A stretch of 64,000 nt of DNA from Dehalococcoidia bacterium (GCA_050184225.1 JBFXAN010000006.1:1640-65639); one strand, 5' to 3'. Positions 2,936 to 46,193 are shown, numbered from the stretch's first letter. The notes: generated by a model not told the origin, from the letters alone. A program made the numbers and translations.

Positions 2936-3148
2936 TCAGAACCATCCAATGAAGCGGGGTGACGCGATCGTAGCGATGAACCGGCGCCGGACCGCGCATA
3001 CTTACGACAAGGGAGACATCTGTTCCGAACACGTTGGGTTGCCTTGACAATACAACAACCGGTGCCGAGATGATAACTCGATCGTGTCCTTGACCGCCCT
3101 CGATCTGCGTCCGGACAATGACGGGAAAGGCTAGAGGGGCACCGTGCT

Positions 3149-4378
3149 GTGCTGACGATCCGACGGATCCGCTATGCGATGGTTCTGGCCGTGATCCTGA
3201 TCGTCGGCTGGTTCATGTGGCAGGCGCGCGGCGCCCTCATCCCCTTCCTCGTCGGCGGCATCCTCGCCTATATCCTCGCGCCGTTGGTCGAGCGTCTCTC
3301 GCGCGTGATGCCGTTCTATCGCACCCGCCGTGAACTGGCGCGCACCCTCGCCATCATCCTCGTCTATGTGAGCGGTCTGGGCGCACTCGTCGCCACTGGA
3401 TCGCTCATCATTCCCGCGATCATCAACGAGACGTCGGAACTGATCGACAATATCCCCACCTACGTCGAGCAGGCACAGGTCGAGGCGGAACGCTGGACCG
3501 ATCTCTACCGTGAGCGGGTGCCGATCGAGGTCCAGCAGCGAATCGAGCAGGCGGTGCAGGATCTGGGCGCATCGCTCGGCGCCTACGGCGAGCAGGTGCT
3601 CGCCCGCAGCTTCGGCATCCTCCAGAGCACCTTCGGCCTCTTCTTCGGCTACATCATCATCCCGTTTTGGCTGTTCTATATCCTCAAGGACCGCCACCGA
3701 ATCGGGCCGGCGATCAAGGAGTGGTTTCCTCCCGGGCTTCGCAGCGATGTCGATCACTGCATTCGGATCATTCAGCGGGTTCTCGGCTCATACATCCGGG
3801 CGCAGTTGATCCTTGGACTGTTCATCGGAACGACGACCACGCTCGGGTTGTTTCTGCTCGGTGTTGACTACTTCATCATCCTGGGGATCATCGCCGGCAT
3901 CACCGAGTTGATCCCGATCATCGGACCGATCCTCGGCGCAATCCCGGCGTTGATCGTCGTCGTGGCGACGGAGCCGGAGAAGACGATCTGGGTGTTGCTG
4001 TTCTACATCGGTATCCAACAACTCGAGAACGTGGTGCTGGTTCCGCGCATTCAGGGCAACGCCGTCGAGATGCATCCGGCCTTGATCATCGTGCTCCTCG
4101 CGATCGCGCAGCAGGTGGCGGGGTTCGGCGGCATGTTGGTCGCTGTACCGCTGGCCGCCGTCTCCCGCGACCTCTTCAAGTACATCTACTCCCGCCTCCA
4201 GGAGCGCGAGACGGAACTCGCCAACGAACGCACGATCCGCCTTCCCCGGCCCGTGCGGCCGGCCATCGCCGAGAACGGCGCCACCGATCGGCGATCGGTC
4301 GAGCCGGCGCACGCCGATGGCGCGGCGCCGGAGCAGTCCGACGCCGCCGGTGCTCCAACCCAAGAGTTGCCGGATTGA
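3149..4378 (+). CDS. AI-2E family (PerM/UPF0118) membrane transporter
   Basis: 409-aa multi-TM ORF with a GTG start. Segments YIIIPFWLFYILKD and ELIPIIGPILGAIPALIVV are typical of AI-2E permeases. Confidence 0.8.
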   Translation: MLTIRRIRYAMVLAVILIVGWFMWQARGALIPFLVGGILAYILAPLVERLSRVMPFYRTRRELARTLAIILVYVSGLGALVATGSLIIPAIINETSELIDNIPTYVEQAQVEAERWTDLYRERVPIEVQQRIEQAVQDLGASLGAYGEQVLARSFGILQSTFGLFFGYIIIPFWLFYILKDRHRIGPAIKEWFPPGLRSDVDHCIRIIQRVLGSYIRAQLILGLFIGTTTTLGLFLLGVDYFIILGIIAGITELIPIIGPILGAIPALIVVVATEPEKTIWVLLFYIGIQQLENVVLVPRIQGNAVEMHPALIIVLLAIAQQVAGFGGMLVAVPLAAVSRDLFKYIYSRLQERETELANERTIRLPRPVRPAIAENGATDRRSVEPAHADGAAPEQSDAAGAPTQELPD

Positions 4379-4382
4379 TCGA

Positions 4383-5153
4383 TCAGTTGCGCGTGATCGT
4401 CGCTTGGAGAATGACGATCGCCGGCTCCGATTCCGGCCGCACGCTGCTCACCCAGACCTGATACTCGGTTCCCTGCCAGCGTGACGTGTCGAAGCGAATC
4501 TCGGCCGAGCCTTGCTCATCCGGTTCGAGCGTGCCGGCATGTCTCGGCCCGACCGGCCCCTGATAGTAAACGTGATAGCTGACTCCCGCATCGGCAGCCG
4601 GTAGATGCTTGACCTTCACCATGCACACCTGCTTGTCCGGGTTCCAGCTGACGGTCCCATAGGCGCCCCGTGCGGACTCGGTGGGCGTGAACGGCGCCTG
4701 TAGCGATGTCGGCAACGCCTGCAGCACGAGTTCCTCCTGGGTTGCCTGAATCTGCTGATTCTCACGTTTGAGGTCGTTGACCTCGTTCTGCAAGAGCAGG
4801 CTCCAGGCGAGCAGTCCCACGAGCGGCGCCACCAGGATCATCGCCGCCATCGCACCCCACCGCCGGCTCAGCCGAACGATCATGCCACCGTCGAGCATCG
4901 AACGGCGCCTCGGCTCGCCCACCGTCTCCGGTGCGGCTGCCACCTCCCCCATCACACCCTCGCGCAGGGCACGGGGCGCGTGATGCAACGGCACGGAGAA
5001 CGCCAGCCGGGCGGCGACGCCTTCCGCATCCTCGAGGATGGCGCGGCAACGGGGGCAGTCGGCCGTATGGGCGCGGACAAAGATTGACTCCTCGGCATCC
5101 AGCGCGCCGAGCGCCTCCAGGTCAATCAGATCGTCAACGTGTGCCGCGCTCAT
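4383..5153 (-). CDS. Anti-sigma factor, RskA-like with N-terminal zinc-binding (ZAS) motif
   Basis: N-terminus contains H-x3-C-x2-C (AHTADCPRC), followed by one TM segment and an extracytoplasmic domain. It overlaps the upstream ECF sigma gene by 4 nt. Confidence 0.75.
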   Translation of the reverse strand: MSAAHVDDLIDLEALGALDAEESIFVRAHTADCPRCRAILEDAEGVAARLAFSVPLHHAPRALREGVMGEVAAAPETVGEPRRRSMLDGGMIVRLSRRWGAMAAMILVAPLVGLLAWSLLLQNEVNDLKRENQQIQATQEELVLQALPTSLQAPFTPTESARGAYGTVSWNPDKQVCMVKVKHLPAADAGVSYHVYYQGPVGPRHAGTLEPDEQGSAEIRFDTSRWQGTEYQVWVSSVRPESEPAIVILQATITRN

Positions 5154-5773
5154 ACCGGGTACGGTGTCTCAACCTCGGCGCTCAGCAAGGAGCGCAATTT
5201 CTTCATCGCCAGGCGGGTCCGCGTCTTGATCGTGCCGAGCGGCTGGTGCAGTTGCTCCGCAATCTCCTGCTGCGTCAATCCCGAAAAGTACGCCATCTCC
5301 AGCGCCACCCGCTGCTCCTTCGGCAACTGGGCGAGCGCCCGGCGTACCGCCAGCCGATCGGCCTGGACCTGGACCGCGACCTGTGGATCTTCGGCCCGCC
5401 AATCCGGCGGATCATCGACGGCCGCGTTCTCTCCGATCTCCCGCAACCGCCGCCGCCCTCGCATTCGCACCTCATCGACCGCACGGTTTCGGGCAACGCT
5501 CACCAGCCAGCTGACAAAGCGGCCGCGGGCGGCATCGTACGCGGTCGGATTGCGCCACAGACGCAAGAACACATCCTGCGCCGCGTCCTGCGCCAGGGCA
5601 GGATCGGCGAGTACACGCAGCGCAATCGAATAGATCAGGTCTGCATGCCGATCGTAGAGCTGCGAGAACGCCGTCGCGTCCCGCTGCACTATCCGCCGCA
5701 CCAGTGTCTCATCATCCGGCTCGAAATCGCGCACGAGCGACCTTTCGGGCGGCGGGCGAGCCATGTCGCTCAC
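5150..5773 (-). CDS. ECF (sigma-70 family) RNA polymerase sigma factor
   Basis: Region 2 (DVFLRLWRNPTAYD..WLVSVARNRAVDEVR) and region 4 (LPKEQRVALEMAYFSGLTQQEIAEQLHQPLGTIKTRTRLAMKKLR). Confidence 0.9.
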   Translation of the reverse strand: MSDMARPPPERSLVRDFEPDDETLVRRIVQRDATAFSQLYDRHADLIYSIALRVLADPALAQDAAQDVFLRLWRNPTAYDAARGRFVSWLVSVARNRAVDEVRMRGRRRLREIGENAAVDDPPDWRAEDPQVAVQVQADRLAVRRALAQLPKEQRVALEMAYFSGLTQQEIAEQLHQPLGTIKTRTRLAMKKLRSLLSAEVETPYPV

Positions 5774-5963
5774 CCTCTAGAACGTTCCTCAACCGGCTTT
5801 GGATTCGTCGGTGCGCGCATTGTACCAGAGCGGCCGCCCACCCAGATTTAACCCTTTCTTCAGAAACCATTAAGCCAGGCGACGCAGCCTTGATGCTGGA
5901 CCCTCCATCACAATCAATACAGGTGGTCATTGTGACCGCGAATCCGAAAGAGGATACCGCACC

Positions 5964-7112
5964 ATGAAGAAACTCCTGGCAGTCCCGGCCGCCGCCATCG
6001 TCCTGCTCGGCGCCGTCGCCTGTACGAACGACACGAACGACTCACCATCAAATACGGACACCGCCGCTGCCTCGGCGCAAACATCTGCCCTCCAAACTCA
6101 GAACAGCACGCGCTCGCTGAATGACGCCGCCGACTCGAACGATGTCGTCAAAGCCGTCTGGCCGAGCGTGGTCCGCATCCGCGCCAACGGCACCCAGACC
6201 AGCGCCTTTGGCACCGCGCAGCAGGGTGAAGGGACCGGCACCGGCTTCATCGTCGACCAGCGCGGCTACATCGTCACCAACAACCATGTCGTCACCCTCG
6301 GCACCAACCGCGAAGCATCGCGCTTCCAGGTGGACCTGTCCGATGGCCGCACGGTCGAAGGCACACTTGTCGGCCGCGATGAGCGCACCGACCTCGCTGT
6401 GATCAAGATCGAAGCGGACAACCTCACGCCGGTCCGCTTTGCCGACTCGACCAAGGAGGAGATCGGCGAGGATGTGCTGGCGATCGGCTTCGCCCTCGAC
6501 CTCGGTTCGACACCGACCGTGACCAAGGGCGTGATCAGCGCCAAGGACCGGGTAATCAACGAGACGCTCAACGCCGGCGGCCGGGCTTACCCGATCAGCA
6601 TCAGCGGCGCGATTCAGACCGACGCGGCGATCAATCCGGGCAACTCCGGCGGCCCCCTGGTCAACATGCAGGGTGAGGTCGTCGGCATCAACACCGCCGG
6701 CCTGGTCGGAGACGCCGGTCAGCCGGTGCAGGGCATCTTCTTCGCCGTCTCCTCCCAGGTGGCCGAGCCGATTGTCGAGTCGCTGATCGACAACGGTCAG
6801 GTTGAGCGTGGCTACCTCGGCGTCGAGGTGACAACCGTCTCACCGCAGGCAGCCCGCGCCGAGGGTCAAGGCGATGTCGAAGGCGCCGGTATCCGCAGCG
6901 TCACGGGCGGTTCCGCCGCCGATCGGGCCGGGCTCCGCGCCGGCGATGTCATCACCAAGATCGGCGACCACGAGATCAACAACATCGGCGACGTGAGCAA
7001 CGCCCTCGCCTCGCACAAGCCCGGCGAGAAGGTCAAGGTTGAATACGCCCGCAACGGCTCGAACGGCTCGACCGACGTGACGCTGGGCGAGCGGCCGGCC
7101 GGAACGACATAG
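5964..7112 (+). CDS. HtrA/DegP-family trypsin-like serine protease with PDZ domain (lipoprotein-like signal, LGAVAC)
   Basis: GTGFIVDQRGYIVTNNHVV (His box), DLAVIKI (Asp), GNSGGPLVNMQGEVVGINT (Ser box), and a C-terminal PDZ-like GDVITKIGDHEI. The stop is TAG. Confidence 0.9.
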   Translation: MKKLLAVPAAAIVLLGAVACTNDTNDSPSNTDTAAASAQTSALQTQNSTRSLNDAADSNDVVKAVWPSVVRIRANGTQTSAFGTAQQGEGTGTGFIVDQRGYIVTNNHVVTLGTNREASRFQVDLSDGRTVEGTLVGRDERTDLAVIKIEADNLTPVRFADSTKEEIGEDVLAIGFALDLGSTPTVTKGVISAKDRVINETLNAGGRAYPISISGAIQTDAAINPGNSGGPLVNMQGEVVGINTAGLVGDAGQPVQGIFFAVSSQVAEPIVESLIDNGQVERGYLGVEVTTVSPQAARAEGQGDVEGAGIRSVTGGSAADRAGLRAGDVITKIGDHEINNIGDVSNALASHKPGEKVKVEYARNGSNGSTDVTLGERPAGTT

Positions 7113-7255
7113 CAGGGGTACACCGCGAGGCGAGTGTGCCCCATGCAGGAAGCGAGGGCGGCGCCGTAGTGGCGCCGCCCTCGTCGCATGTTCGCGCGGT
7201 CCGGCCGCCGGCGCCGGCGATATACTGGACCTACGCAACCGCGGGAATCGACTGT

Positions 7256-8101
7256 ATGCCATCGCAACGCACAGCGCGCTCCATCTCATCCGCGGCGGTC
7301 ACCGACGGCCTCGGCCGGACGGTTCACCTCGCTACGCCGCCACGGTCGATCGTCTCGCTCGTGCCGAGCCTGACCGAAGCGCTCTTTGCGATGGGGCTAT
7401 CCGAGCAGATCGCGGGCCGAACGAAGTACTGCGTCGAACCTGCCGATCAGGTTGACAACACGCCGGCGCTCGGCGGCACCAAGGACCCCGATATCCGCCG
7501 GATCATCGACATGCAGCCGGACCTCGTGATCGCCAGCGCCGAAGAGAATGTTCGCGAGCACGTCGAGGTGCTGATCGCGGCCGGTCTCACGGTCTACGTT
7601 TCCCTCCCCTCGACGGTCCGGCGCGCGATCGCCGAGCTCCATGACCTTGCCGCGCTCGCCAACCGCATACCTGAAGCCGCGCCGTGGTTGACGGAGGCCG
7701 CCGCACTGGTCCAACGCTTCGAAGACCGGACCAAGCACCGCCGCCCGTTGCGCTACTTCTGCCCGATCTGGCGACGGCCTTACATGGTCGCCGCGCCCGA
7801 CACCTACATGTCTGACCTGCTTCGGTTGTGTGGTGGTGAGAATATCTTCACCGGCGGCGCTGCCCACTACTACCCGGTCGAGTTGGACGAGGTCGCCCGG
7901 CGCGCGCCGGAGGTGATCCTGCTGCCCAGCGAGCCGTACCCGTTCGCAGCTAAGCACCTTCCCGAAATCGTGGCCTGGAACCAGATCCCGGCGGTGCAGA
8001 CAAGGAGCGTGCACCTGATCGACGGTCAGTGGATCACGTGGTACGGGCCGCGCATCGCCTCCAGTCTCCGGGCGGTCGCCGCGCTGTTTGAGTCCGCATG
8101 A
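7256..8101 (+). CDS. Periplasmic-binding-protein type 2 fold (BtuF/TroA-like, cobalamin/iron-complex binding) protein
   Basis: IVSLVPSLTEALFAMGLSEQIAGRTKYC and PDLVIASAEEN are typical of the ABC cobalamin/Fe3+-siderophore binding fold. I chose the ATG at 7256; the track ORF begins at 7136. Confidence 0.65.
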   Translation: MPSQRTARSISSAAVTDGLGRTVHLATPPRSIVSLVPSLTEALFAMGLSEQIAGRTKYCVEPADQVDNTPALGGTKDPDIRRIIDMQPDLVIASAEENVREHVEVLIAAGLTVYVSLPSTVRRAIAELHDLAALANRIPEAAPWLTEAAALVQRFEDRTKHRRPLRYFCPIWRRPYMVAAPDTYMSDLLRLCGGENIFTGGAAHYYPVELDEVARRAPEVILLPSEPYPFAAKHLPEIVAWNQIPAVQTRSVHLIDGQWITWYGPRIASSLRAVAALFESA

Positions 8102-17768: not shown

Positions 17769-20354
17769 ATGGCAGAGAAGTTCAATCCTCAAGAAACCGA
17801 CCGGAAATGGCAGCAGCGCTGGGAAGCGGACGGCCTCTACCGGACGCCGGACGACAGCGACAAGCCAAAGTACTACTTCCTGACGATGTACCCCTATCCG
17901 TCCGGCGACCTGCACACCGGCCACTGGTACGCGGAGGCGCCGGCCGACACCAAGGCGCGCTACCTGCGGATGCGCGGCTACAACGTCCTCTTCCCAATGG
18001 GCTTCGACGCCTTTGGCCTGCCCGCCGAGAATGCCGCCATCCGCAATAACATCCATCCGTTCCAGTGGACGATGGCCAACATCGACCGCATGCGCAACCA
18101 GTTCAAGAGCATGGGCGCGATGTTCGACTGGTCGCGCGAGGTGATCACCTGCCTGCCCGAATACTACACATGGAACCAGTGGTTCTTCCTCCAGTTCTAC
18201 AAGAAGGGCCTGGCCTACCGCGCCCGCGCCGCCGTGGACTTCTGCCCCAACTGCAACACGACGCTCGCCCGCGAGCAGGTCTGGGGCGAAGACCGCCGCT
18301 GCGAACGCTGCGGCACGCAGGTCGAAAAGCGCGACCTGGAGCAGTGGTTCTTCCGCATCACCGACTACGCGGACGAGTTGCTGCGCTTCGACGGCCTCGA
18401 CTGGCCCGACCGCGTCAAGACGATGCAGACCAACTGGATCGGCCGGTCCGAGGGCGCGGAGATCGCGTTCGTGATTGAACCTAACCCCCCGACCCCCTCC
18501 CCTCGCAGGGAAGGGGGAGTCCTGAGTGACGTTGGTGGGAATGATATCGCCATCCCACGAACAGACGAGCTACTGGCACCCTCGGTAGATGAGGACTCCC
18601 CTCCCCTGCGAGGGGAGGGGCCGGGGGAGAGGTCTGAAATCCGCGTCTTCACCACCAGACCGGACACGATCTACGGCGTCAGCTTCATGGTGCTGGCGCC
18701 CGAACATCCGCTGGTCGAACAACTGACAACGCCTGAGCAGGCCGAGGCCGTCCGAGAGTACATCGAGCAGGCACGGCGCGAGACGGAGATCGAGCGGACC
18801 GCCGCCGACAAGCCGAAGACCGGCGTCTTCACCGGCGCGTACTGCATCAATCCATACTCCGGCGAGCGGGTGCCGGTCTATGTCGGCGACTACGTGCTCT
18901 ACACCTACGGCACCGGCGCGGTGATGGGTGTGCCCGCGCACGACGAGCGGGACTTCGCCTTCGCCAAAACCTACAGCCTGCCGATCCCGGTGGTGATCGC
19001 GCCATCGGACTGGACCGGTGCGGAACTGGACTCGGCATATACCGAGCCAGGGACGATGGTCAACTCCGGTCCGTTCGACGGCACGCCAAGTGAGGAAGGC
19101 AAGAAACAGGTGATCGCCTACGGCGAGGAACGCGGCTTCGCCACGACGCGGGTGACCTATCGCATGCGCGACTGGCTGATCTCTCGTCAGCGCTATTGGG
19201 GCACGCCGATCCCGATCATCTACTGCCCCGTGGACGGCGTCGTGCCCGTGCCCGAGGAGGATCTGCCCGTCCTCTTGCCGGAGGACTCCGAGTTCCGTCC
19301 GACCGGCGAATCGCCGCTGAAGTATGACGAGCGATTCAAGAACGTGTCCTGCCCAACCTGTGGCGGTCCCGCCGAGCGCGAGACCGACACAATGGACACC
19401 TTCATGGACTCCTCCTGGTACCAGTACCGCTACCTCAGCCCGCACTTCGCCGAGGGGCCGTTCAACCCATCAAAGGCGGATTGGCTGCCGGTCGACCAGT
19501 ATACGGGCGGCATCGAGCACGCGACGATGCACCTGCTCTACTTCCGCTTTTTCACCAAGGCGATGCGCGATCTCGGACTGGTGACGATCGACGAGCCGGT
19601 GACGCGGCTGATCAATCAGGGCATCATCCTCGGTCCCGACAGCCAGAAGATGTCAAAGAGCCGGGGCAACGTCGTCAACCCTGATGATTATGTCGACAGT
19701 CTCGGTGCCGATGTCTTCCGCTGCTATCTGATGTTCATCGGCCCCTGGGAGGACGGCGGCCCCTACCGGCCTGAAGGGATCGAAGGCGTCACCCGCTGGC
19801 TGCATCGTGTCTGGAACCTGACGCTCGACGAGCCACGCTTCGCCGGCACGATCGACGCCGACGCCACCCGCGACCTCCAACGCCGACGGCACAAGACCGT
19901 GCGCGTCGTCTCCGAGGATCTGGAGAACTTCCGGTTCAACACGAAGCTCGCCCGGCTGATGGAGTACACGAACGAGCTCTCCCGCGTCAAAGACAGCGGC
20001 CGGATCGACCCCGCCGTCTGGAACGACGCCGTCGAGACGCTGCTGTTGATGACCGCGCCCGCCGCCCCCCACATCACCGAGGAGTTGTGGGAACGCACCG
20101 GCCGCCCCTACTCGGTCCACACCCAGGCATGGCCGTCCTTCGACCCGGCTCTGGCCGAAGACGAGCAACGAACCATCGTCGTGCAGATCAACGGCAAGGT
20201 CCGCGACCGCCTCTCCGTACCGGTCGACGCCACCCGCGAACAGGTCGAGGCAATGGCGATGGCGAGCGAAAAAGTCGCCGGCCAGATTGACGGCGCCACC
20301 GTGCGAAACGTGGTCTATGTGCCGGGACGGCTGGTCAATATCGTCGTTACCTAA
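17769..20354 (+). CDS. leuS: Leucyl-tRNA synthetase (carries an in-frame repeat-derived insertion)
   Basis: MAEKFNPQETDRKWQQRWE, YPSGDLHTGH (HIGH), VFTTRPDTIYG (CP1), KMSKSRGN (KMSKS). The ATG at 17769 was chosen downstream of the T-box terminator. Confidence 0.95.
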   Translation: MAEKFNPQETDRKWQQRWEADGLYRTPDDSDKPKYYFLTMYPYPSGDLHTGHWYAEAPADTKARYLRMRGYNVLFPMGFDAFGLPAENAAIRNNIHPFQWTMANIDRMRNQFKSMGAMFDWSREVITCLPEYYTWNQWFFLQFYKKGLAYRARAAVDFCPNCNTTLAREQVWGEDRRCERCGTQVEKRDLEQWFFRITDYADELLRFDGLDWPDRVKTMQTNWIGRSEGAEIAFVIEPNPPTPSPRREGGVLSDVGGNDIAIPRTDELLAPSVDEDSPPLRGEGPGERSEIRVFTTRPDTIYGVSFMVLAPEHPLVEQLTTPEQAEAVREYIEQARRETEIERTAADKPKTGVFTGAYCINPYSGERVPVYVGDYVLYTYGTGAVMGVPAHDERDFAFAKTYSLPIPVVIAPSDWTGAELDSAYTEPGTMVNSGPFDGTPSEEGKKQVIAYGEERGFATTRVTYRMRDWLISRQRYWGTPIPIIYCPVDGVVPVPEEDLPVLLPEDSEFRPTGESPLKYDERFKNVSCPTCGGPAERETDTMDTFMDSSWYQYRYLSPHFAEGPFNPSKADWLPVDQYTGGIEHATMHLLYFRFFTKAMRDLGLVTIDEPVTRLINQGIILGPDSQKMSKSRGNVVNPDDYVDSLGADVFRCYLMFIGPWEDGGPYRPEGIEGVTRWLHRVWNLTLDEPRFAGTIDADATRDLQRRRHKTVRVVSEDLENFRFNTKLARLMEYTNELSRVKDSGRIDPAVWNDAVETLLLMTAPAAPHITEELWERTGRPYSVHTQAWPSFDPALAEDEQRTIVVQINGKVRDRLSVPVDATREQVEAMAMASEKVAGQIDGATVRNVVYVPGRLVNIVVT
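18480..18633. repeat. Family A palindromic element copy 1, inside the leuS ORF
   Basis: CCTAACCCCCCGACCCCCTCCCCTCGCAGGGAAGGGGGAG..GAGCTACTGGCACCCTCGGTAGATGAG..CCCCTCCCCTGCGAGGGGAGGGGCCGGGGGAGAGGT. Same termini and core as the intergenic copies. Confidence 0.85.
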
Positions 20355-20503
20355 CCCCCCGGCCCCCTTCCCTGCGAGGGAAGGGGGTGCCTCATTCTAC
20401 CGAGGTGCCAGTAGCTCGTCGGGCGACACCGACGATCCTCGTTCCACCACGGTAAACCAGAACTCCCCCTTCCCTGCGAGGGAAGGGGGCCGGGGGGTTA
20501 GGT
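20350..20503. repeat. Family A palindromic element copy 2 (inverted orientation)
   Basis: Termini are CCTAACCCCCCGGCCCCCTTCCCTGCGAGGGAAGGGGG / CCCCCTTCCCTGCGAGGGAAGGGGGCCGGGGGGTTAGGT. The core is the reverse complement of copy 5. It contains the leuS stop TAA (20352..20354). Confidence 0.9.
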
Positions 20504-20508
20504 ATCCC

Positions 20509-33320: not shown

Positions 33321-33333
33321 GGAGACCCGAATG

Positions 33334-33408
33334 TGTCATCCTGAGCGACAGCGAAGGATCTCGGAGGTTACGTACGTCCGAGATCCTTCGCTGTCGCTCA
33401 GGATGACA
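33334..33408. repeat. Family D palindrome (TGTCATCCTGAGCG..GAAGGATCTCGG core), copy 1
   Basis: TGTCATCCTGAGCGACAGCGAAGGATCTCGGA-loop-TCCGAGATCCTTCGCTGTCGCTCAGGATGACA. The flanks (about 33310..33440) are also similar to copy 2. Confidence 0.9.
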
Positions 33409-33476
33409 CAACCCGATCCACTCACGGAGCGTTGGCATGAGGTGGTGACACGGGCGCGAAGTATCCGGCCGCGACC

Positions 33477-37241: not shown

Positions 37242-39692
37242 ATGATGCGACAGGATAGGTTCACCGAGCAGGCCCGCGAGGCACTCGCGGCATCGCAGGA
37301 ATTGGTCCGGCAACAGCGGCACAGCCAGTGGGACGTGGAGCACGTCCTCCTCGCCCTCGTCGACCTTCAGGGCGGCCTCGCCCAGGAGATCCTGAAACGG
37401 CTCGACGTGCCCGTCGACCAGCTTCGCCGCCGGATCGCCGAGAGCCTGAATCAGACGCCGAAGCTCGCCTACGACGTGGTCCAGATCTACACCACGCCGC
37501 GGATCGTCCGGTTGCTGGAAAACGCCGACGCCGAAGCGAACCGTCTCAAGGACGAATACATCGGCGTCGAGCACCTGCTGATCGCGATCGCCGACGAGCG
37601 CGAGGGCGACGCCGCAACCGCCCTGCGTGACCTCGGCATCGACAAGGAGCGCATTTATCGCGCCCTCTCCGAGGTGCGGGGCAAGGCGCGGGTCGACGAC
37701 CCCCGCGCCGAGTCGCGCTATCAGGCGCTGGCCAAGTACTCGACCGACCTCACCGCAATGGCGGCGTCCGGCAAGCTCGATCCCGTGATCGGGCGTGAGG
37801 ACGAGGTGAAGCGCGTCATGCAGATCCTCAACCGCCGTCAGAAGAACAACCCGGTGATCATCGGCGAGGCGGGCGTCGGTAAGACGGCGATCGTCGAGGG
37901 GCTCGCCCAGGCGATCGTCGCCGATGACGTGCCGGAGAACCTGCGCGGCAAGCGGCTCGTCGCGCTCGACGTCGGCGCCCTCGTCGCCGGCTCGAAGTTC
38001 CGCGGCGAGTTCGAAGAGCGCCTCCAGGCGATCATGCGCGAGGTGCGCAAGGCCGCCGGTGAGGTGATCCTCTTCATCGACGAGCTGCACCAGGTCGTCG
38101 GCGCCGGCGGCGCCGATGGCGCGATCGACGCCAGCACGATGATGAAACCGGCGCTGGCCCGCGGCGAGCTGCGCGCGATCGGCGCGACGACGCTCGACGA
38201 GTACCGTCGCTATATCGAGAAGGACCCAGCACTGGAGCGCCGCTTTGCCCCGGTGTATGTGGACGAGCCGAGCGTCGAGGAGACGATCGCGATCCTGCAC
38301 GGCCTGCGGCCCCGCTACGAGGCGCACCACGATGTCACGATCACCGATGCCGCGCTCGACGCGGCGGCCAAGCTCTCCGACCGCTACATCACCGAACGCT
38401 TCCTGCCGGACAAGGCGATCGACCTGATCGACGAGTCGGCCTCGAAGCACGTGATCGAGGCGCAGAGCCTGACGCCGGCAATGCGCGGTCTGCGGAAGCG
38501 GCTCGACGCACTCAGCGCCGAGATGGACGCCGCTGCCGGCCGCGAGGACTACGAGGCGGCGGCGCGGGTCAAGCAGGAAGTGCTCACGCTGCAGGAGGAG
38601 TGGAACGCGGCCAAGGCCGCTCGCCAGGCCGAGCGCGGTGAGGGCGACGAGGAGATCGTCACCGAGCAGGACATCGCCTCCCTGGTCGCATCGATCACCG
38701 GCATCCCGATCGACCGGATGCTCGAGGGCGAAGCAGAGAAGCTCCTCCAGATGGAGGAGCGGCTGCACGACCGCGTCATTGGTCAGGAGGCGGCGATCGA
38801 GGCGCTCTCCGACGCGATCCGCCGGGCACGCGCCGGCCTGAAGGACCCCCGCCGCCCGATCGGCAGCTTCATCTTCCTCGGCCCCACCGGCGTCGGCAAG
38901 ACGGAGCTGGCGAAGGCGCTGGCCGAGCTGATGTTCGACGACGAGGACGCGATCGTGCGGCTCGACATGAGCGAGTACCAGGAGCGGCACACCGTCTCCC
39001 GCCTGATCGGCGCGCCTCCCGGCTACGTCGGCTACGACGAGGGCGGCGGTCTCACCGAGGCGGTGCGGCGGCGGCCGTATCGGGTGATCCTCTTCGACGA
39101 GATCGAAAAGGCGCACCCCGACGTCTTCAACACACTGCTCCAGATTCTGGAGGACGGCCGGCTGACCGACGGCCAGGGCCACACGGTCGACTTCCGCAAC
39201 ACCGTCGTCATCATGACGAGTAACCTCGGCACCGGCGACCGCGGCAAGTCGATCGGCCTGACGTTAGGCAAGCGGACGGAGAGCACCGCCGACCGGCAGA
39301 AGCTGGAGGAGAACGTGCTGCGGGCGCTGCGCGACCACTTCCGGCCGGAGTTCCTCAACCGGATCGACGAGATCATCGTCTTCGAGCCGCTCACCGAGCG
39401 GGAACTGGCCCAGATCGTCGACCTGATGGTCGAGGAAGTGCGGGAGCGCCTGGAGGAGCGGGGCGTGACGCTGACGTTGACCGCCGCCGCCAAAGACGCA
39501 CTCGTTCGCGAAGGCTACGACCCGACCTACGGCGCCCGCCCGCTGCGCCGCGTGATCCAGCGGCAGGTGGAGAACCAGGTCTCCAAGCGCCTGCTCGCCG
39601 GCGAGTTCGGCGAAGGCGACACCGTCCACGTCGACCATACGCCGGACGGCTACACCTTCACCAAGGTCGAGCCGGCGACCGCCGCGGCGTAA
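37242..39692 (+). CDS. clpB: ATP-dependent chaperone ClpB
   Basis: Clp N repeats, two AAA+ modules ([15 protein letters not shown] and [15 protein letters not shown]), and a long middle coiled coil. 816 aa from ATG 37242. Confidence 0.95.
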
Positions 39693-39803
39693 TCCTGCAG
39701 TGGGAATCATGGCGGCCGGAGGTGTGGCACAGTCTCCTCAGGCCGCCTCTCTGTGACGGGCAGTATCAAACGATGTTGACGCCCTTCCGGTACGCGCAAT
39801 AGG

Positions 39804-40187
39804 GTGGGATTGAGGCACGCCATGAACGGTAACAGCGACGAGCCACGGGCAGGGACAATGCGGATGCGGCCAACGGAGTATCCGCACATCCTCTGGAACA
39901 TTGACAAGGAACTCCCCTGTGTTTCAGGCACCCGTCTGCGCGTCCAGGATGTCGTAGCTCAGTATGCGGCCGGGGGCAACCTCGAAGAGATCGAGGAAGC
40001 GTATCCGAGCTATTCGCGTGCGGAATTGCTGAGCGCGCTTGCGTATTACTACGACCACAAGGAAGAGATGGACGCGTTGATGGAGGAGCACCGCCGTAGC
40101 GCGGAGGCGTGGCGCGCCGAGGTTGAGGCAAGTCGAGGTCCAACAAAAGCGCAACTCGCAGCACGGGCGAAGTCAGCCCTGACGTGA
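39804..40187 (+). CDS. DUF433 (COG2442) antitoxin-like protein, copy 1
   Basis: EYPHILWNIDKELPCVSGTRLRVQDVVAQYAAGGNLEEIEEAYPSYSRAELLSALAYYYDH. GTGA overlap with the downstream ORF. Confidence 0.75.
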   Translation: MGLRHAMNGNSDEPRAGTMRMRPTEYPHILWNIDKELPCVSGTRLRVQDVVAQYAAGGNLEEIEEAYPSYSRAELLSALAYYYDHKEEMDALMEEHRRSAEAWRAEVEASRGPTKAQLAARAKSALT

Positions 40188-40530
40188 GCCTCCCGCTTTA
40201 CTTCGATCAGCACGTCCCCGGCCCAGTAGCGGCTGCACTACGACAACACAGTGTTGATGTCCTCACCGCCGAGCAAGACGGACAAAAGGGCCTCGTCGAT
40301 GAATTGCTGCTGACGCGCGCCACGTCGCTGGGGCGAATCTTGGTCACAAACGACCGTGGCTTTCACACGATCGTTGCTCGCTGGCGACAAGGCGGTCATC
40401 ATTTCGCGGGGATAGTCTACTACGGCGATCAGCACATCCCACATGGCAAGCTCATGACGATCTGTTGCTTGTTTCGAAGGTGTACGACGCCGACGACATG
40501 ATGGATCACATCGAGTTTCTCCCGCTGTGA
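40184..40530 (+). pseudogene. DUF5615 (PIN-like, COG4634 class) toxin-like gene with a 1-nt frameshift near the 3' end
   Basis: MSLPLYFDQHVPGPVAAALRQHSVDVLTAEQDG..ILVTNDRGF..HIPHGKL. After about 40455 the +1 frame reads DDLLLVSKVYDADDMMDHIEFLPL*, which matches the copy 2 tail EDLLMIAEVYSPEEMIDRIEYRPL. Confidence 0.65.
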
Positions 40531-40548
40531 GAGCATATCCTCGTCCTC

Positions 40549-40917
40549 GTGAACGCTGAGTCCAAGCGTGGAGGCGCTGCCATGACCATGCGAATGCGAC
40601 CGACCGAATACCCCCACATCCTCTGGAACATCGACAAGGATCTGCCGCGCATCTCTGGGACGCGGCTCCGTATCCAGGATGTGGTTGAGCACCACCAAGC
40701 GGGTCGCATGCTGGATGACATCATCGAAGCATATCCGAGCTACTCGCGTGCAGAGATCCTCAGTGCCCTGGCCGACTACTATGACCATCAGCAGGAGATG
40801 GACGAGTCCATGGCGCGCCGCCGTCAAGAGGCCGAAGCGCGGCTCGCTGAGATTGAGGCACGACAGGGTCCGTCGAAGGCCCGTCGCCTGGCCCGGGCCA
40901 AGTCGGCCGGTTCGTGA
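40549..40917 (+). CDS. DUF433 (COG2442) antitoxin-like protein, copy 2
   Basis: MRMRPTEYPHILWNIDKDLPRISGTRLRIQDVVEHHQAGRMLDDIIEAYPSYSRAEILSALADYYDH. Roughly 65% identical to copy 1 by eye. Confidence 0.75.
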   Translation: MNAESKRGGAAMTMRMRPTEYPHILWNIDKDLPRISGTRLRIQDVVEHHQAGRMLDDIIEAYPSYSRAEILSALADYYDHQQEMDESMARRRQEAEARLAEIEARQGPSKARRLARAKSAGS

Positions 40918-41111
40918 GCCTCAGCTTCTACTTCGACCAGCACGTTGGTATCGCATCGCGGTGGACCGCCAGCGATCGCCACTTCGCGGGCCTCGTGCGC
41001 CGGCGCGATCAACATCTGCCATATGGGAAGCTCATTGAGGATCTGCTGATGATCGCCGAGGTGTACAGCCCCGAGGAGATGATCGATCGCATCGAATACC
41101 GGCCACTCTGA
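40914..41111 (+). pseudogene. Internally deleted DUF5615 toxin-like remnant (65 aa)
   Basis: MSLSFYFDQHV is joined directly to ..HFAGLVRRRDQHLPYGKLIEDLLMIAEVYSPEEMIDRIEYRPL. About 50 central residues present in copy 1 are missing. Confidence 0.6.
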
Positions 41112-41146
41112 CCTGAATGGCAGGGGCAACAGGGAGCGCCATTCAC

Positions 41147-41259
41147 CGCCCGCCCGTTGCGCCACGTGATCCAGCGGCAGGTGGAGAACCAGGTCTCCAA
41201 GCGCCTGCTCGCCGGCGAGTTCGGCGAGGGCGACACCGTCCATGCCGACCACACCCCGG
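41147..41259 (+). pseudogene. Duplicated fragment of the clpB 3' end
   Basis: 113 nt align without gaps to clpB 39533..39645, with about 7 mismatches by eye. It encodes [28 protein letters not shown] versus clp[29 protein letters not shown]. Confidence 0.85.
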
Positions 41260-41264
41260 GGGCT

Positions 41265-41342
41265 ATGCCTTTTGAGACGCAGCCGATAGACGAGTTCATC
41301 GAGGTCGAACTCCTCTGGCATCGCATTCATCACCGCGATCAT
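41265..41342 (-). pseudogene. N-terminal fragment of a small antitoxin-like gene (paralog of 51694..51873)
   Basis: MIAVMNAMPEEFDLDELVYRLRLKRH versus IELIRDMPEEIDIQKLIYTLYIRRKIE. The similarity ends where the clpB fragment begins. Confidence 0.4.
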
Positions 41343-41387
41343 CGTGCCTATTCATAAACTGTTCCTCATCCAGCCATCTTCTGACTC

Positions 41388-42353
41388 CTACGGGATCGCC
41401 GCGAGCACGGCGTCCCAGGCGAGTTCCGACGCGAGCACTCCCAGACCGCCCTGGATCAACTGCTCCTGGCCATCGACCTGCCCGGTCGAAACCGTGTAGA
41501 AGACGTCGCCATCGGTCGCCGTGTGGAACGGCTGGATCGCCCGGCTCATCGAGCTATGGACCTCCCGGCCGAGTTGACGCAGCGCGAAGCTGCTCATCGT
41601 GATGTTGGTGACGAGCACCGTCAGCGTCGTGTTGCCGCCTGTGGGCACGCCGGCGCCAAGCTCACCCTCCAGCCGGCGTTGCACCAACGCTCGTGCACCC
41701 AGTCGTTCTCCCGACCGCGAGTCCAAATTGCCGCACACCGTCCGCCCCTGCCGATCGACGATCGCGCCAACCGCGTTGACCACGGTGAACACCGCGACCT
41801 TGGCCGGCCCTATCTCCAAGAACGCCGCCCCTTGCCCCGCCGGCTCGCCGCCGCCGAACATCTTGCCGCACGTCGCCGATCGCCCCGCGCCGCGCGCGCC
41901 CAGCGGAAAGATACCCGGACGTGCCGCACGGATGGCCGCCCGTCCCAGCGCCTTATCCGGATACACGCTGTTCTGCCGGACGTAGTCGTAAATGATCGCG
42001 CCGGAAACCACGGGGAGGTCCGTCCACCCGGGACTATAACTCCGCTGCGCCCAGATCTCGGCAGCGACGCCGGTCGCGGCTTCGAGTCCGAGCAGCGAGC
42101 CGCCGGCCAGGCAGATCGCGTCGACGACCGGATAGTCACCGACAAAGCCGATGGAACCGCCGCGCAGGTCCAGGGATGTCAGCGCGAGGCCCGGCCCCGT
42201 GAAGAGCAGCACGGTGCATCCGGTTGGTCCCTCGTCGTATTCGGCGACGCCAATCTGAAGTCCTGGGAAGTCAAACGCGAGCGCAGGTCCGTCGAACGTG
42301 GTCCGCGGCGATAGGGTCAGGGTGTCGTTCGTGATCGGGTCGGTCATCCTCAT
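41388..42353 (-). CDS. P1/S58 family peptidase (DmpA/L-aminopeptidase-like)
   Basis: GLQIGVAEYDEGPTGCTVLLF..GGSIGF..AICLAGGS. Start at MRMTDP (42353). Confidence 0.75.
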   Translation of the reverse strand: MRMTDPITNDTLTLSPRTTFDGPALAFDFPGLQIGVAEYDEGPTGCTVLLFTGPGLALTSLDLRGGSIGFVGDYPVVDAICLAGGSLLGLEAATGVAAEIWAQRSYSPGWTDLPVVSGAIIYDYVRQNSVYPDKALGRAAIRAARPGIFPLGARGAGRSATCGKMFGGGEPAGQGAAFLEIGPAKVAVFTVVNAVGAIVDRQGRTVCGNLDSRSGERLGARALVQRRLEGELGAGVPTGGNTTLTVLVTNITMSSFALRQLGREVHSSMSRAIQPFHTATDGDVFYTVSTGQVDGQEQLIQGGLGVLASELAWDAVLAAIP

Positions 42354-42653
42354 CCTCCCGCCACAGGGTACGCGCTCGACCGGCTGGCTGTGCCATAGTC
42401 CCTTGGCGGCATCGACCGATCGTGCCATGCTCGTACCATCCGACGATACGGATTTCCGCCCGTCTCCCCTGCCCTACTTCGCCTTCAATGATCAGGACGC
42501 ACGCACGGCCCCAATTGTGTACCCTCATCGACGTGATGCCTTGGTTGTCCGTCAGCATGGACGATCCGGTATCGTCGTTGACATCTGGAGCCTGGCCGGC
42601 CGGCGAGAGTCCGAAGCGCGGCCGGTTTGGGCACGATCTGGGAGGGGTCTTCG

Positions 42654-43865
42654 ATGGGCATTCGCCGCATGAAATTCGGTATCTTCCTGGCGCCGTTCCA
42701 CCGCGTGGGCGAGAATCCGACGCTCGCCCTGGCGCGTGACATGGAGCTGATCCAGTGGCTCGACCACCTCGGTTATGACGAGGCGTGGATCGGCGAACAT
42801 CACTCCGCCGGCTGGGAGACGATCGCCGATCCGGCGGTCTTCATCGCGGCCGCGGCCGAACGGACCAAGTACATCAAGCTCGGCGCCGGCGTCGTCAGCC
42901 TCCCCTACCACCATCCGCTGATGGTGGCGGAGCGGTTCGTCCAGCTCGACCACATGACCCGTGGCCGCTCGATGCTCGGCGTTGGACCCGGCGCGCTCGT
43001 CTCCGACGCCTACATGATGGGCATCGAGCCGGTGACACAGCGGCAGCGGATGGATGAATCGCTCGGCGCGATCATATCGCTGCTCCGTTGCGAAGAGCCG
43101 GTGACGATGAAGACGGACTGGTTCGAGCTGCGCGAGGCGCGGCTGCATCTCGCGCCGTTCTCCGAGCCGCGCTTCGAGATCGCCGCCGCCAGCCAGATTA
43201 CCCCCGCCGGCATGGTCACGGCGGGCAAGTACGGCGTCGGCGTACTCTCGCTCGGCGCTGGTCTGCCCGGCGGCGCCGACGCGCTCGCCAACCACTGGCA
43301 GATCGCCGAAGACGCCGCCGCCGAGGCGGGCCACACGATGAATCGAAAAGAGTGGCGGCTCGTGGCGCCGGTCCATGTCGCCGAGGACCGCGAACAGGCG
43401 CTGCACGATGTCCGGCAGGGCGAGCGGGCGCACACGCTCTCCTACTTCCAGGAGACGCTCGGCCGTCCGCCCGGCCGCGACTCCGAAGACCCGCTGCGCG
43501 AGGGCGTCGAGGCCGGCACTACCCTCGTCGGATCGCCGGAGGATGTCACGCGCGGGATCGAACGGCTGGTGGAGATGAGCAAGGGCGGCTTCGGCGGTCT
43601 GCTCTTCATGGCGCACGAATGGGCCAACCGCGAGGCAACGCTGCGCAGCTTCGAGCTCTTCGCCCGCTACGTCATGCCTCGCTTCCAAGGCCAGATCGAC
43701 ACCCTGCACAACTCCCGCGAGTGGGTCGCCAGCAACAAGAAGACGATCTTCGGCCCCAACGCCGCCGCGATCGCCAAGGCCTTCTCCGATGCGGGCAGAG
43801 AAATGCCGGAGGTACTCGCGGGAAGGTTCAAGCCAAACCCCTCCCCCGACCCCTCCCCCCGCTGA
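42654..43865 (+). CDS. LLM-class (luciferase-like) flavin-dependent monooxygenase
   Basis: MKFGIFLAPFH..LGYDEAWIGEHHS. RBS GGGAGGGG. The last ~9 codons (PNPSPDPSPR) and the TGA stop lie in a family B repeat arm. Confidence 0.85.
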   Translation: MGIRRMKFGIFLAPFHRVGENPTLALARDMELIQWLDHLGYDEAWIGEHHSAGWETIADPAVFIAAAAERTKYIKLGAGVVSLPYHHPLMVAERFVQLDHMTRGRSMLGVGPGALVSDAYMMGIEPVTQRQRMDESLGAIISLLRCEEPVTMKTDWFELREARLHLAPFSEPRFEIAAASQITPAGMVTAGKYGVGVLSLGAGLPGGADALANHWQIAEDAAAEAGHTMNRKEWRLVAPVHVAEDREQALHDVRQGERAHTLSYFQETLGRPPGRDSEDPLREGVEAGTTLVGSPEDVTRGIERLVEMSKGGFGGLLFMAHEWANREATLRSFELFARYVMPRFQGQIDTLHNSREWVASNKKTIFGPNAAAIAKAFSDAGREMPEVLAGRFKPNPSPDPSPR

Positions 43866-45994: not shown

Positions 45995-46086
45995 CCCAAT
46001 CACGACTGAGCAGTCGCCGCGCCGTGGCGAGAGGCATCCCACAGAAACCGTTTGTTATACCGCCTCGCGGTGAGGAAACCCGGATT

Positions 46087-46162
46087 TGTCATCCTGAGCG
46101 ACAGCGAAGGATCTCGGACATTATCAGACCACCGAGATCCTTCGCTGTCGCTCAGGATGACA
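46087..46162. repeat. Family D palindrome, copy 2
   Basis: TGTCATCCTGAGCGACAGCGAAGGATCTCGGA-loop-CCGAGATCCTTCGCTGTCGCTCAGGATGACA. The flanks are similar to copy 1. Confidence 0.9.
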
Positions 46163-46193
46163 TACAACCCGATCTACTCAAGGAGAGTTGGTA

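Follow-up and report, generated by a model that had tools for sequence, protein, structure and literature searches.

How does the end of a chaperone gene come to stand twice in the same orientation, with toxin-antitoxin genes in between? The question is posed by a stretch of 64,000 nucleotides (nt) from a Dehalococcoidia bacterium (GCA_050184225.1, JBFXAN010000006.1:1640-65639), called the window here, in which the 3' end of clpB recurs downstream of the intact gene and of two tandem DUF433/DUF5615 modules (Table 1). The window is part of contig C6 (70.7 kb) of a 6.8-Mb metagenome-assembled genome (MAG) from this class of the phylum Chloroflexota. A preliminary description, made from the sequence alone, had seen in the arrangement the attL/attR-like scar of an integrating element that brought a replacement 3' end with it. 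We find that the window holds a well-preserved instance of a recombinase-free insertion footprint that pervades this genome and, in the clade, recurs at clpB. As to the route, which we infer, it is on balance probable that a replacement clpB tail was inserted together with its cassette by a homology-driven process requiring no recombinase, and that the original 3' end of clpB was displaced by it.

The duplicated clpB end and its surroundings

A repeat search places the direct repeat at 39533-39645 and 41147-41259, where 106 of 113 nt are identical (94%, seven mismatches) at a spacing of 1614 nt. This bears out the preliminary description, which had read by eye a recurrence of 113 nt, ungapped and with about seven mismatches; the full match is longer and includes a 1-nt gap. 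MAFFT and blastn extend it to ~120-127 nt, ending near 39660 and 41273, with a 1-nt deletion in the second copy. The repeats are therefore 113-127 nt long at 92-94% identity, well over 30 bp, and the repeat search found no second direct pair longer than 44 nt at 70% in the region 36-43 kb. The left edge is sharp and lies at the GARPLRR codons (the sensor-2 motif) of clpB, and 35 nt separate the stop of the preceding open reading frame (ORF) from 41147. A second public assembly, GCA_050247955.1, has the identical arrangement with 1 mismatch in 14.4 kb. The duplication of the clpB end is real and far beyond chance.

The proximal copy belongs to the functional gene, for which L164, a near-identical assembly, likewise has a call of 815 residues; the last ~160 nt of clpB, from position 39533 to the stop at 39692, comprise the proximal repeat and the functional tail. 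In the distal copy the invariant Arg of GARPLRR is changed to His and the frame breaks at the 1-nt deletion, so that the clpB-frame reading runs ..HTPG/GYAF and then meets TGA.

The sequence behind the distal copy identifies its origin. Directly abutting it is the 5' relic of an antitoxin gene of a ParE-type module: window positions 41342-41268 (minus strand) encode MIAVMNAMPEEFDLDELVYRLRLKR, 84% identical to residues 6-30 of the antitoxin in the related sequence L165 (E 1e-13, tblastn), and the first five residues can be read in a neighbouring frame. A ParE module lies directly 3' of clpB in L165, the P0003 contig, G007 and L168. This relic, taken together with the position of the intact module in relatives, indicates that the distal copy is the original clpB end in its original neighbourhood, and that the proximal tail and the two DUF433/DUF5615 modules are the newcomer. 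The preliminary description had proposed just such a replacement of the 3' end with displacement of the old one, and in this it is supported by the relic, by an empty site in L166 and by clpB remnants in other relatives. The insertion lies between the body of clpB and its original end. After the ParE module had come to lie behind the distal copy, a deletion of ~0.5 kb appears to have taken the tail of the remnant, the ParE toxin gene and the 3' half of the antitoxin gene. Such a deletion accounts for the stop of the remnant after ..GYAF and for the diverging frame noted earlier downstream of the second copy; that divergence is real, but it is not an alternative clpB end, being a 1-nt deletion followed by the junction of the ~0.5-kb deletion.

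Between the copies the preliminary description had recognised the intact clpB terminus and two DUF433/DUF5615 modules. Pfam agrees, with the toxin of module 2 added by alignment to its homologue in L117; what must be changed is that both toxin genes look defective. The DUF433 of module 1 is 79% identical to the one lying 3' of clpB in the metagenome contig L116. The module 1 toxin aligns with residues 1-91 of the intact 115-residue L117 homologue and is frameshifted thereafter: with the shift near 40457 the ORF ends at 40501, the proper C-terminus can be read in another frame as far as 40530, and the sequence shows a 1-nt gap relative to module 2. The module 2 toxin has an internal deletion of approximately residues 12-62 and aligns with residues 63-114 of the L117 toxin. 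The two modules share only 71% nt identity. DUF433/DUF5615 (COG2442/PIN-like) genes are predicted type II pairs, and the window shows the same two-gene architecture, both Pfam domains and the overlap of DUF433 stop and DUF5615 start (40184-40187 and 40914-40917); unlike intact pairs, both toxins here appear inactivated when judged against the L117 homologue. Other copies of the cassette in the genome, such as one beside an integrase, were looked for, and none was found at the DNA level. Beyond the toxin stop, the right end of the cassette has no similarity to the homologous L117 module. An imperfect hairpin between the clpB stop and module 1 may be a candidate terminator brought in along with the replacement tail; a T-run is lacking, and a promoter and terminator scan of 39.4-41.5 kb called nothing, this hairpin included.

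Upstream of the duplication the class has a conserved gene order, dnaJ-hspR(MerR)-clpB; no such conservation is seen downstream. No tRNA gene was found within 30-50 kb of the window. Copies of a dispersed repeat of ~80-160 nt were seen at 20347-20504, 33332-33410 and 46060-46191 when L164 was compared with the window by blastn.

Table 1. Features around the duplicated clpB end (window coordinates) and repeat-flanked cassettes on other contigs (C numbers) of the same genome
Feature	Position	Strand	Basis and remarks
clpB, 815 residues, intact	37245..39692	+	Pfam Clp_N, AAA, AAA_lid_9, AAA_2, ClpB_D2-small; L164 gene call
Proximal repeat copy, within functional clpB, GARPLRR codons onward	39533..39660	+	Repeat search, alignment, blastn
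Imperfect hairpin GGCGGCCGGAGG..CCTCAGGCCGCC, 3' of clpB stop	39711..39747	+	Read from sequence
DUF433 antitoxin-like gene, module 1, intact	39822..40187	+	Pfam PF04255, E 5e-12
DUF5615 (PIN-like) toxin gene, module 1, frameshifted	40184..40530	+	Pfam PF18480, E 2e-12
DUF433 antitoxin-like gene, module 2, intact	40582..40917	+	Pfam PF04255, E 4e-10
DUF5615 toxin remnant, module 2, 65-residue ORF	40914..41111	+	No Pfam match; L117 alignment
Distal copy, 5'-truncated clpB 3' end	41147..41273	+	Repeat search, alignment, Pfam ClpB_D2-small match
5' relic of ParE-type-module antitoxin, ~30 codons, one frameshift	41268..41355	-	tblastn
Peptidase S58 gene	41388..42428	-	Pfam; missing here in relatives, part of variable islet
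Luciferase-like monooxygenase gene, conserved right-hand neighbour	42627..43865	+	Pfam
Cassette	C1:117939-118783		Self-blastn
Cassette, cargo UPF0150/HicB-like	C4:64847-66951		Self-blastn; Pfam
Cassette, cargo RES	C4:86863-88156		Self-blastn; Pfam
Cassette, cargo MFS transporter (not toxin-antitoxin)	C5:44195-45714		Self-blastn; Pfam
Cassette	C8:8955-9956		Self-blastn
Cassette	C12:43541-47056		Self-blastn
Cassette, cargo BrnT	C21:8716-9634		Self-blastn; Pfam
Cassette	C23:39024-41804		Self-blastn
Cassette	C24:53056-54033		Self-blastn
Cassette, cargo ParE, after rpoD	C29:38473-39267		Self-blastn; Pfam
Cassette	C36:33864-36157		Self-blastn
Cassette, cargo DUF4258 + DUF2283	C41:14316-15113		Self-blastn; Pfam
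Cassette, cargo Gp49/HigB-like	C42:26288-27434		Self-blastn; Pfam
Cassette, cargo PIN_3 + UPF0175	C89:11003-12055		Self-blastn; Pfam
Cassette, cargo MNT + HEPN	C101:12860-14556		Self-blastn; Pfam
Cassette	C116:13543-16021		Self-blastn
Cassette	C140:7678-8739		Self-blastn
Repeat-flanked cargo HicB, outside the 18	C5:12551		Pfam; no intact host gene overlapping the repeat found
Repeat-flanked cargo UPF0175 + DUF3368, outside the 18	C13		Pfam; repeat near the gene's 5' end

The clpB locus in relatives

The empty site looked for in relatives is present in L166 (ClpB ~84% identical), where a single clpB end is followed after 442 nt by the luciferase-like gene; at ~84% a base-level comparison with the two window copies is weak. 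In L116/L117 (~79% nt identity) the order is clpB, spacer, DUF433, an intact DUF5615, a ParE-type module on the opposite strand and the luciferase-like gene, with no clpB remnant. The window is colinear with L116 from 39036 to 40096, through the clpB tail, the spacer and DUF433. That the proximal tail and spacer are linked to DUF433 in this lineage also suggests that the tail came with the cassette.

Other relatives carry remnants of the clpB end. The P0003 contig (ClpB ~90% identical; gene table only) has clpB, a ParE module, a 78-residue ClpB_D2-small fragment, DUF433 with DUF5615, and MarR. These are the same two cassette types as in the window, in the opposite order around the clpB fragment, and it follows that each of the two can be the later arrival, and that the later arrival goes in on the side next to the gene. 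A longer series is found in L165 (~87%), which has clpB, a ParE module, two small genes, remnant 1, DUF433, a second ParE module, remnant 2, a cupin gene and the luciferase-like gene. Remnant 1 (6249-6492) is 97.5% and remnant 2 (7388-7612) 91.6% identical to the proximal copy. The two have a common junction and a homologous flank on the cassette or antitoxin side (5996-6479 against 7128-7612, 82%), so that within this array a junction has been used again. The last ~30 nt of the three clpB tails of L165 are very different (~50%), yet they are equal in length, in frame and each provided with its own stop. Within the same array (4577-7612) the DUF433 gene has no DUF5615 partner and overlaps with the gene for the second ParE.

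The pattern extends beyond the nearest relatives. In G006, from another genus of the same family, clpB is followed by MNT-HEPN, a remnant, a 219-residue ORF with a ParE module, a further remnant and another ParE module. Two cases come from other orders: G035 has one clpB remnant around an antitoxin-like ORF, and in L056 (4314-5400) a duplication of the clpB end brackets a single gene, on the opposite strand, for an intradiol (catechol 1,2-type) dioxygenase. The latter means that the footprint is not limited to toxin-antitoxin cargo. The junction in clpB falls at five positions in five lineages, namely GAR in the window, approximately PLRR in L056, AREGF in G035, LM|LGEV in L165 and RDH|RPEF in G006, and the sequences adjoining the remnants are unrelated to one another except within one array.

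Remnants of clpB occur in about 4 of the 9 lineages of this clade of closer relatives. This overturned our initial view that clpB was no hotspot and that its recurrence was mere ascertainment; clpB is both a hotspot locally and a member of a class found throughout the genome (below). A tally of extra clpB ends across 400 genomes of the class gave few clean cases. Two candidates in it were rejected, one being clpC with a masked stretch (G072:C65) and the other a paralogue at a contig end (G357:C88).

Several further observations were made at clpB ends in these genomes. In L023 (G006:C124) three clpB 3' ends stand in series (2971-3342, 4702-5065 and 6527-6871); the second and third have inactivating changes in common, namely PLQQ in place of PLRR and a small deletion, and copy 2 resembles copy 1 in its 3' part. 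This mosaic suggests that the copies have recombined or undergone gene conversion with one another. In G199:C126 (L114, 2464-2771) a 3' pseudo-fragment of clpB, interrupted by stops in frame, lies directly upstream of dtd and opposite rpoC, with clpB itself on another contig; it could belong to a large island or reflect a rearrangement. On the minus strand of G315:C2 (191154-192350) an open frame of 1107 residues has three separate matches to the profile of the C-terminal (D2-small) domain of ClpB, and may encode a Clp-type protein with a repeated small domain. The assemblies of some relatives break exactly in the clpB 3' region (G003:C7, G007:C77 and G007:C150), as expected if the segment is repeated there too.

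The same anatomy at other genes of the genome

A self-blastn of the whole MAG for direct pairs 150-8000 nt apart gave approximately 120, of which at least 18, clpB included, share one anatomy; there are thus at least 17 further cassettes of this kind in the genome (Table 1). In each, the final 48-200 nt of an intact and usually well-conserved gene make up the proximal copy. A cassette of 0.6-3.1 kb comes next and then a 5'-truncated distal copy, which usually has a stop of its own, often of another type. The proximal repeat ends no more than 3 nt from the stop codon in 13 of the 18. Judged by eye from their translations, the host genes include rpoD, groEL, two LuxR-type regulators and genes for an acyl-CoA dehydrogenase, a carboxyltransferase, a ketoacyl synthase and an enoyl-CoA hydratase. 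The notion that the chaperone gene was a special target is accordingly not supported.

The cargo shows a preference for addiction-type genes, the families being listed in Table 1. Several cassette ORFs (those of C1, C140 and part of C4) match no Pfam or NCBIfam family, and would be toxin-antitoxin genes only on account of their size, pairing and resemblance by eye. Seventeen of the 18 cassettes have a GC content of 0.56-0.63, against 0.655 for the genome, a composition that looks foreign; the exception, at 0.67, is the cassette with the MFS transporter. Among the 18 cassettes there are no end k-mers or motifs in common, no terminal inverted repeats and no similarity of one cassette to another. 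Similar direct repeats that seem to take in the 5' end of a neighbouring gene, not its 3' end, are found at C10:36378-37100, C274:3587-4918, C150:12826-13787 and C13:19406-20362.

The differences between the copies bear on their ancestry. When the two copies are compared within the 18 repeats, 69 of the changes are synonymous and 43 non-synonymous. As a null, the proximal copy was allowed only synonymous changes and the distal one was left to decay neutrally, under nine mutation models. The null predicts 39-53% synonymous changes, and the observed excess has p values between 7e-7 and 0.04, depending on the mutation model. Changes between C and G make up 26 of the 112 differences. Divergence between copies peaks in the quarter of the repeat beside the stop, at 10.5% compared with 4-6.6% elsewhere, and the stop codons are frequently switched in type, yet retained. 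There was no difference in non-synonymous richness between the left half of the repeat, the putative pseudogene arm, and the right half. The synonymous bias, the divergence on the stop side, the stop switches and the in-frame tails of L165 together suggest that the copies carry tails from alleles that once functioned and that differ in ancestry.

Route of insertion and comparison with known systems

The sequence of events that we think on balance probable would have begun with a ParE-type module directly 3' of clpB, the place where it still lies in relatives. A laterally acquired segment, consisting of a replacement tail with its stop, the hairpin and the two DUF433/DUF5615 modules, would have recombined in at the GARPLRR codons. 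Host homologous recombination would make one junction invisibly within the shared clpB sequence. The other, joining the end of the cassette to 41147, could come from a circle or tandem unit, already provided with the arm, through re-integration or unequal exchange or, when such a junction was made for the first time, from an illegitimate join inside the paired region; the junctions shared in L165 and G006 favour re-integration of an arm-carrying unit. The ~0.5-kb deletion, with loss of the remnant tail, the ParE toxin gene and half of the antitoxin gene, would be a later event. With new cassettes entering on the gene-proximal side, older cassettes and their tails would pile up distally. Inserts flanked by repeats would normally be lost by recombination between the repeats, and addiction modules would resist this loss, which would explain why the cargo is mostly toxin-antitoxin.

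Several points weigh against this account. Over the 113-nt core the window copies match each other at 106 positions and any sampled orthologue at 98 at most, a closeness that fits duplication in situ, later gene conversion or a very close donor. A sliding comparison of clpB with relatives shows no step in identity at the junction, the relatives being ~80% identical and too distant to inform. With the most biased of the mutation models, the excess of synonymous changes is no more than marginal (p 0.04). That most repeats end within 3 nt of the stop codon is explained by no model. All sequences compared are moreover MAGs or metagenome contigs. Our own reading is a hybrid one, in which tail and spacer would be imported in linkage with the cassette, and the arm would have a core shared with the host or homogenised against it.

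The alternative that survives best is a pure insertion in situ with a long target duplication, in which break and repair double ~130-160 nt of the recipient gene's own end around an insert, the two copies being alike to begin with and the distal one then decaying. Insertion with long target duplication has been described for restriction-modification genes (Nobusato et al. 2000, Gene 259:99; Furuta, Abe & Kobayashi 2010, NAR 38:2428, PMC2853133). The repeats there are 30-420 bp long and often span the start or stop of a neighbour that stays intact, mobility genes are absent and a life cycle through the repeats is hypothesised, an anatomy that agrees with ours. The core of the window copies, each the closest relative of the other, speaks for this alternative, as does the 97.5% identity of the L165 proximal copy and remnant 1. 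It does not account readily for the L165 tails, which differ so much while keeping frame, length and stops, or for the switched stop codons; the differences between copies are too synonymous for one that decays; and proximal tail and spacer are linked to DUF433 in the L116 lineage too. We regard it as unlikely.

An integrase of the tyrosine or serine type, acting on an attP that carried a replacement clpB end and since lost or supplied in trans, would leave a remnant like a cis-mobilizable element (CIME). Such elements classically leave foreign DNA between two copies of a gene's 3' end, they are known to accrete in tandem at a single site, and the genome encodes 16 integrase-family matches elsewhere. 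Nevertheless, no tyrosine recombinase (PF00589) matched on the 70.7-kb contig, where serine recombinases were not searched separately; Pfam found no transposase or integrase among the ORFs between the repeats; and the cassettes and arrays examined contain no recombinase genes and no shared recombination sites. Five junction positions in five lineages, the lack of conserved sequence adjoining the remnants and 18 target genes in one genome, which would need as many site specificities, all argue in the same direction. The clpB scar is thus not supported as an integrase att site, and this origin, the one first proposed for the locus, now seems very improbable. An artefact, whether mis-assembled strain variants or a simple tandem duplication of the clpB end, might be suspected in a MAG of 304 contigs with 7% contamination and with relatives whose contigs break at the clpB 3' end, but is barely credible given the same arrangement in a second assembly, copies that differ by 6% and an indel, cargo unrelated to clpB and the recurrence of this anatomy in assemblies made independently by different studies.

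In prokaryotes, chromosomal toxin-antitoxin modules rank with the most mobile genes, and most have no visible means of moving. The clpB locus and its relatives preserve steps of such movement, namely an empty site, single insertions, a reversed cassette order and arrays with fossil clpB ends. The footprint at ~18 genes of one genome ties toxin-antitoxin mobility to the little-studied route of long target duplication, and suggests that the tail of the neighbouring gene is imported along with the cassette. We put forward, tentatively, the possibility that toxin-antitoxin (and occasionally other) cassettes of Dehalococcoidia are recombinase-less mobile units in which a copy of the last 50-370 nt of a conserved host gene, such as clpB, rpoD or groEL, is the sole mobility part, moved by RecA and held by addiction. 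If so, the arm would let the RecA of the host integrate, excise and amplify the unit at that gene in any related genome. The C-terminal tail of the gene would travel with the cassette, and arrivals would displace the resident tail and build integron-like arrays with fossil gene ends as separators. It would be addiction that keeps such intrinsically unstable inserts, with their repeats on either side, from being lost. The spread of toxin-antitoxin loci among chromosomes would then have a general explanation, one not described so far. A consequence for annotation is that short ORFs matching ClpB_D2-small, like other fragments of gene ends beside toxin-antitoxin genes, are to be taken as scars rather than genes.

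Of the known systems, the long target duplications of restriction-modification genes come closest. In common are small addiction-type units with no transposase or integrase, target-derived direct repeats of tens to hundreds of bp that often span the stop of an intact neighbour, and an empty site in a related genome; for the restriction-modification genes, repeat-mediated amplification and release have been proposed as a life cycle. A review of the same school (PMC3874152) mentions the route for restriction-modification systems only, and a limited literature search found no report of it for toxin-antitoxin cassettes. The present cases differ in their cargo, which is type II toxin-antitoxin (DUF433/DUF5615 in the window) and occasionally a metabolic gene. 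They differ also in that the copies have unlike C-terminal tails and stops and a synonymous bias in their differences, which suggests a proximal tail that was imported and not duplicated on the spot, and in serial arrays that show gene-proximal addition.

A second comparison is with homology-facilitated illegitimate recombination, reportedly described in naturally transformable bacteria by de Vries and Wackernagel in 2002. It resembles the route proposed here in having a homologous anchor at one end, an illegitimate join nearby at the other and no enzyme encoded by the element. In that description it usually deletes recipient DNA, whereas the join here would lie inside the anchor region and create a duplication.

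Integration at the 3' end of a gene with a replacement end is known from phage 21 and e14 at icd and from ICESt1 and CIMEs at fda. There too the gene functions through an end borne by the element, the old end is left as attR-like debris and elements accrete in tandem. Those elements have an integrase and a fixed crossover core, in contrast to the absence of an integrase, the variable junctions and the many target genes found here.

Integron arrays, finally, differ from those described here in having IntI, attI, attC and a shared recombination motif. The likeness lies in cassettes of promoterless size, often toxin-antitoxin, that stand in series at one site with the newest nearest the anchor; in the present arrays it is copies of the end of the host gene that separate one from the next.

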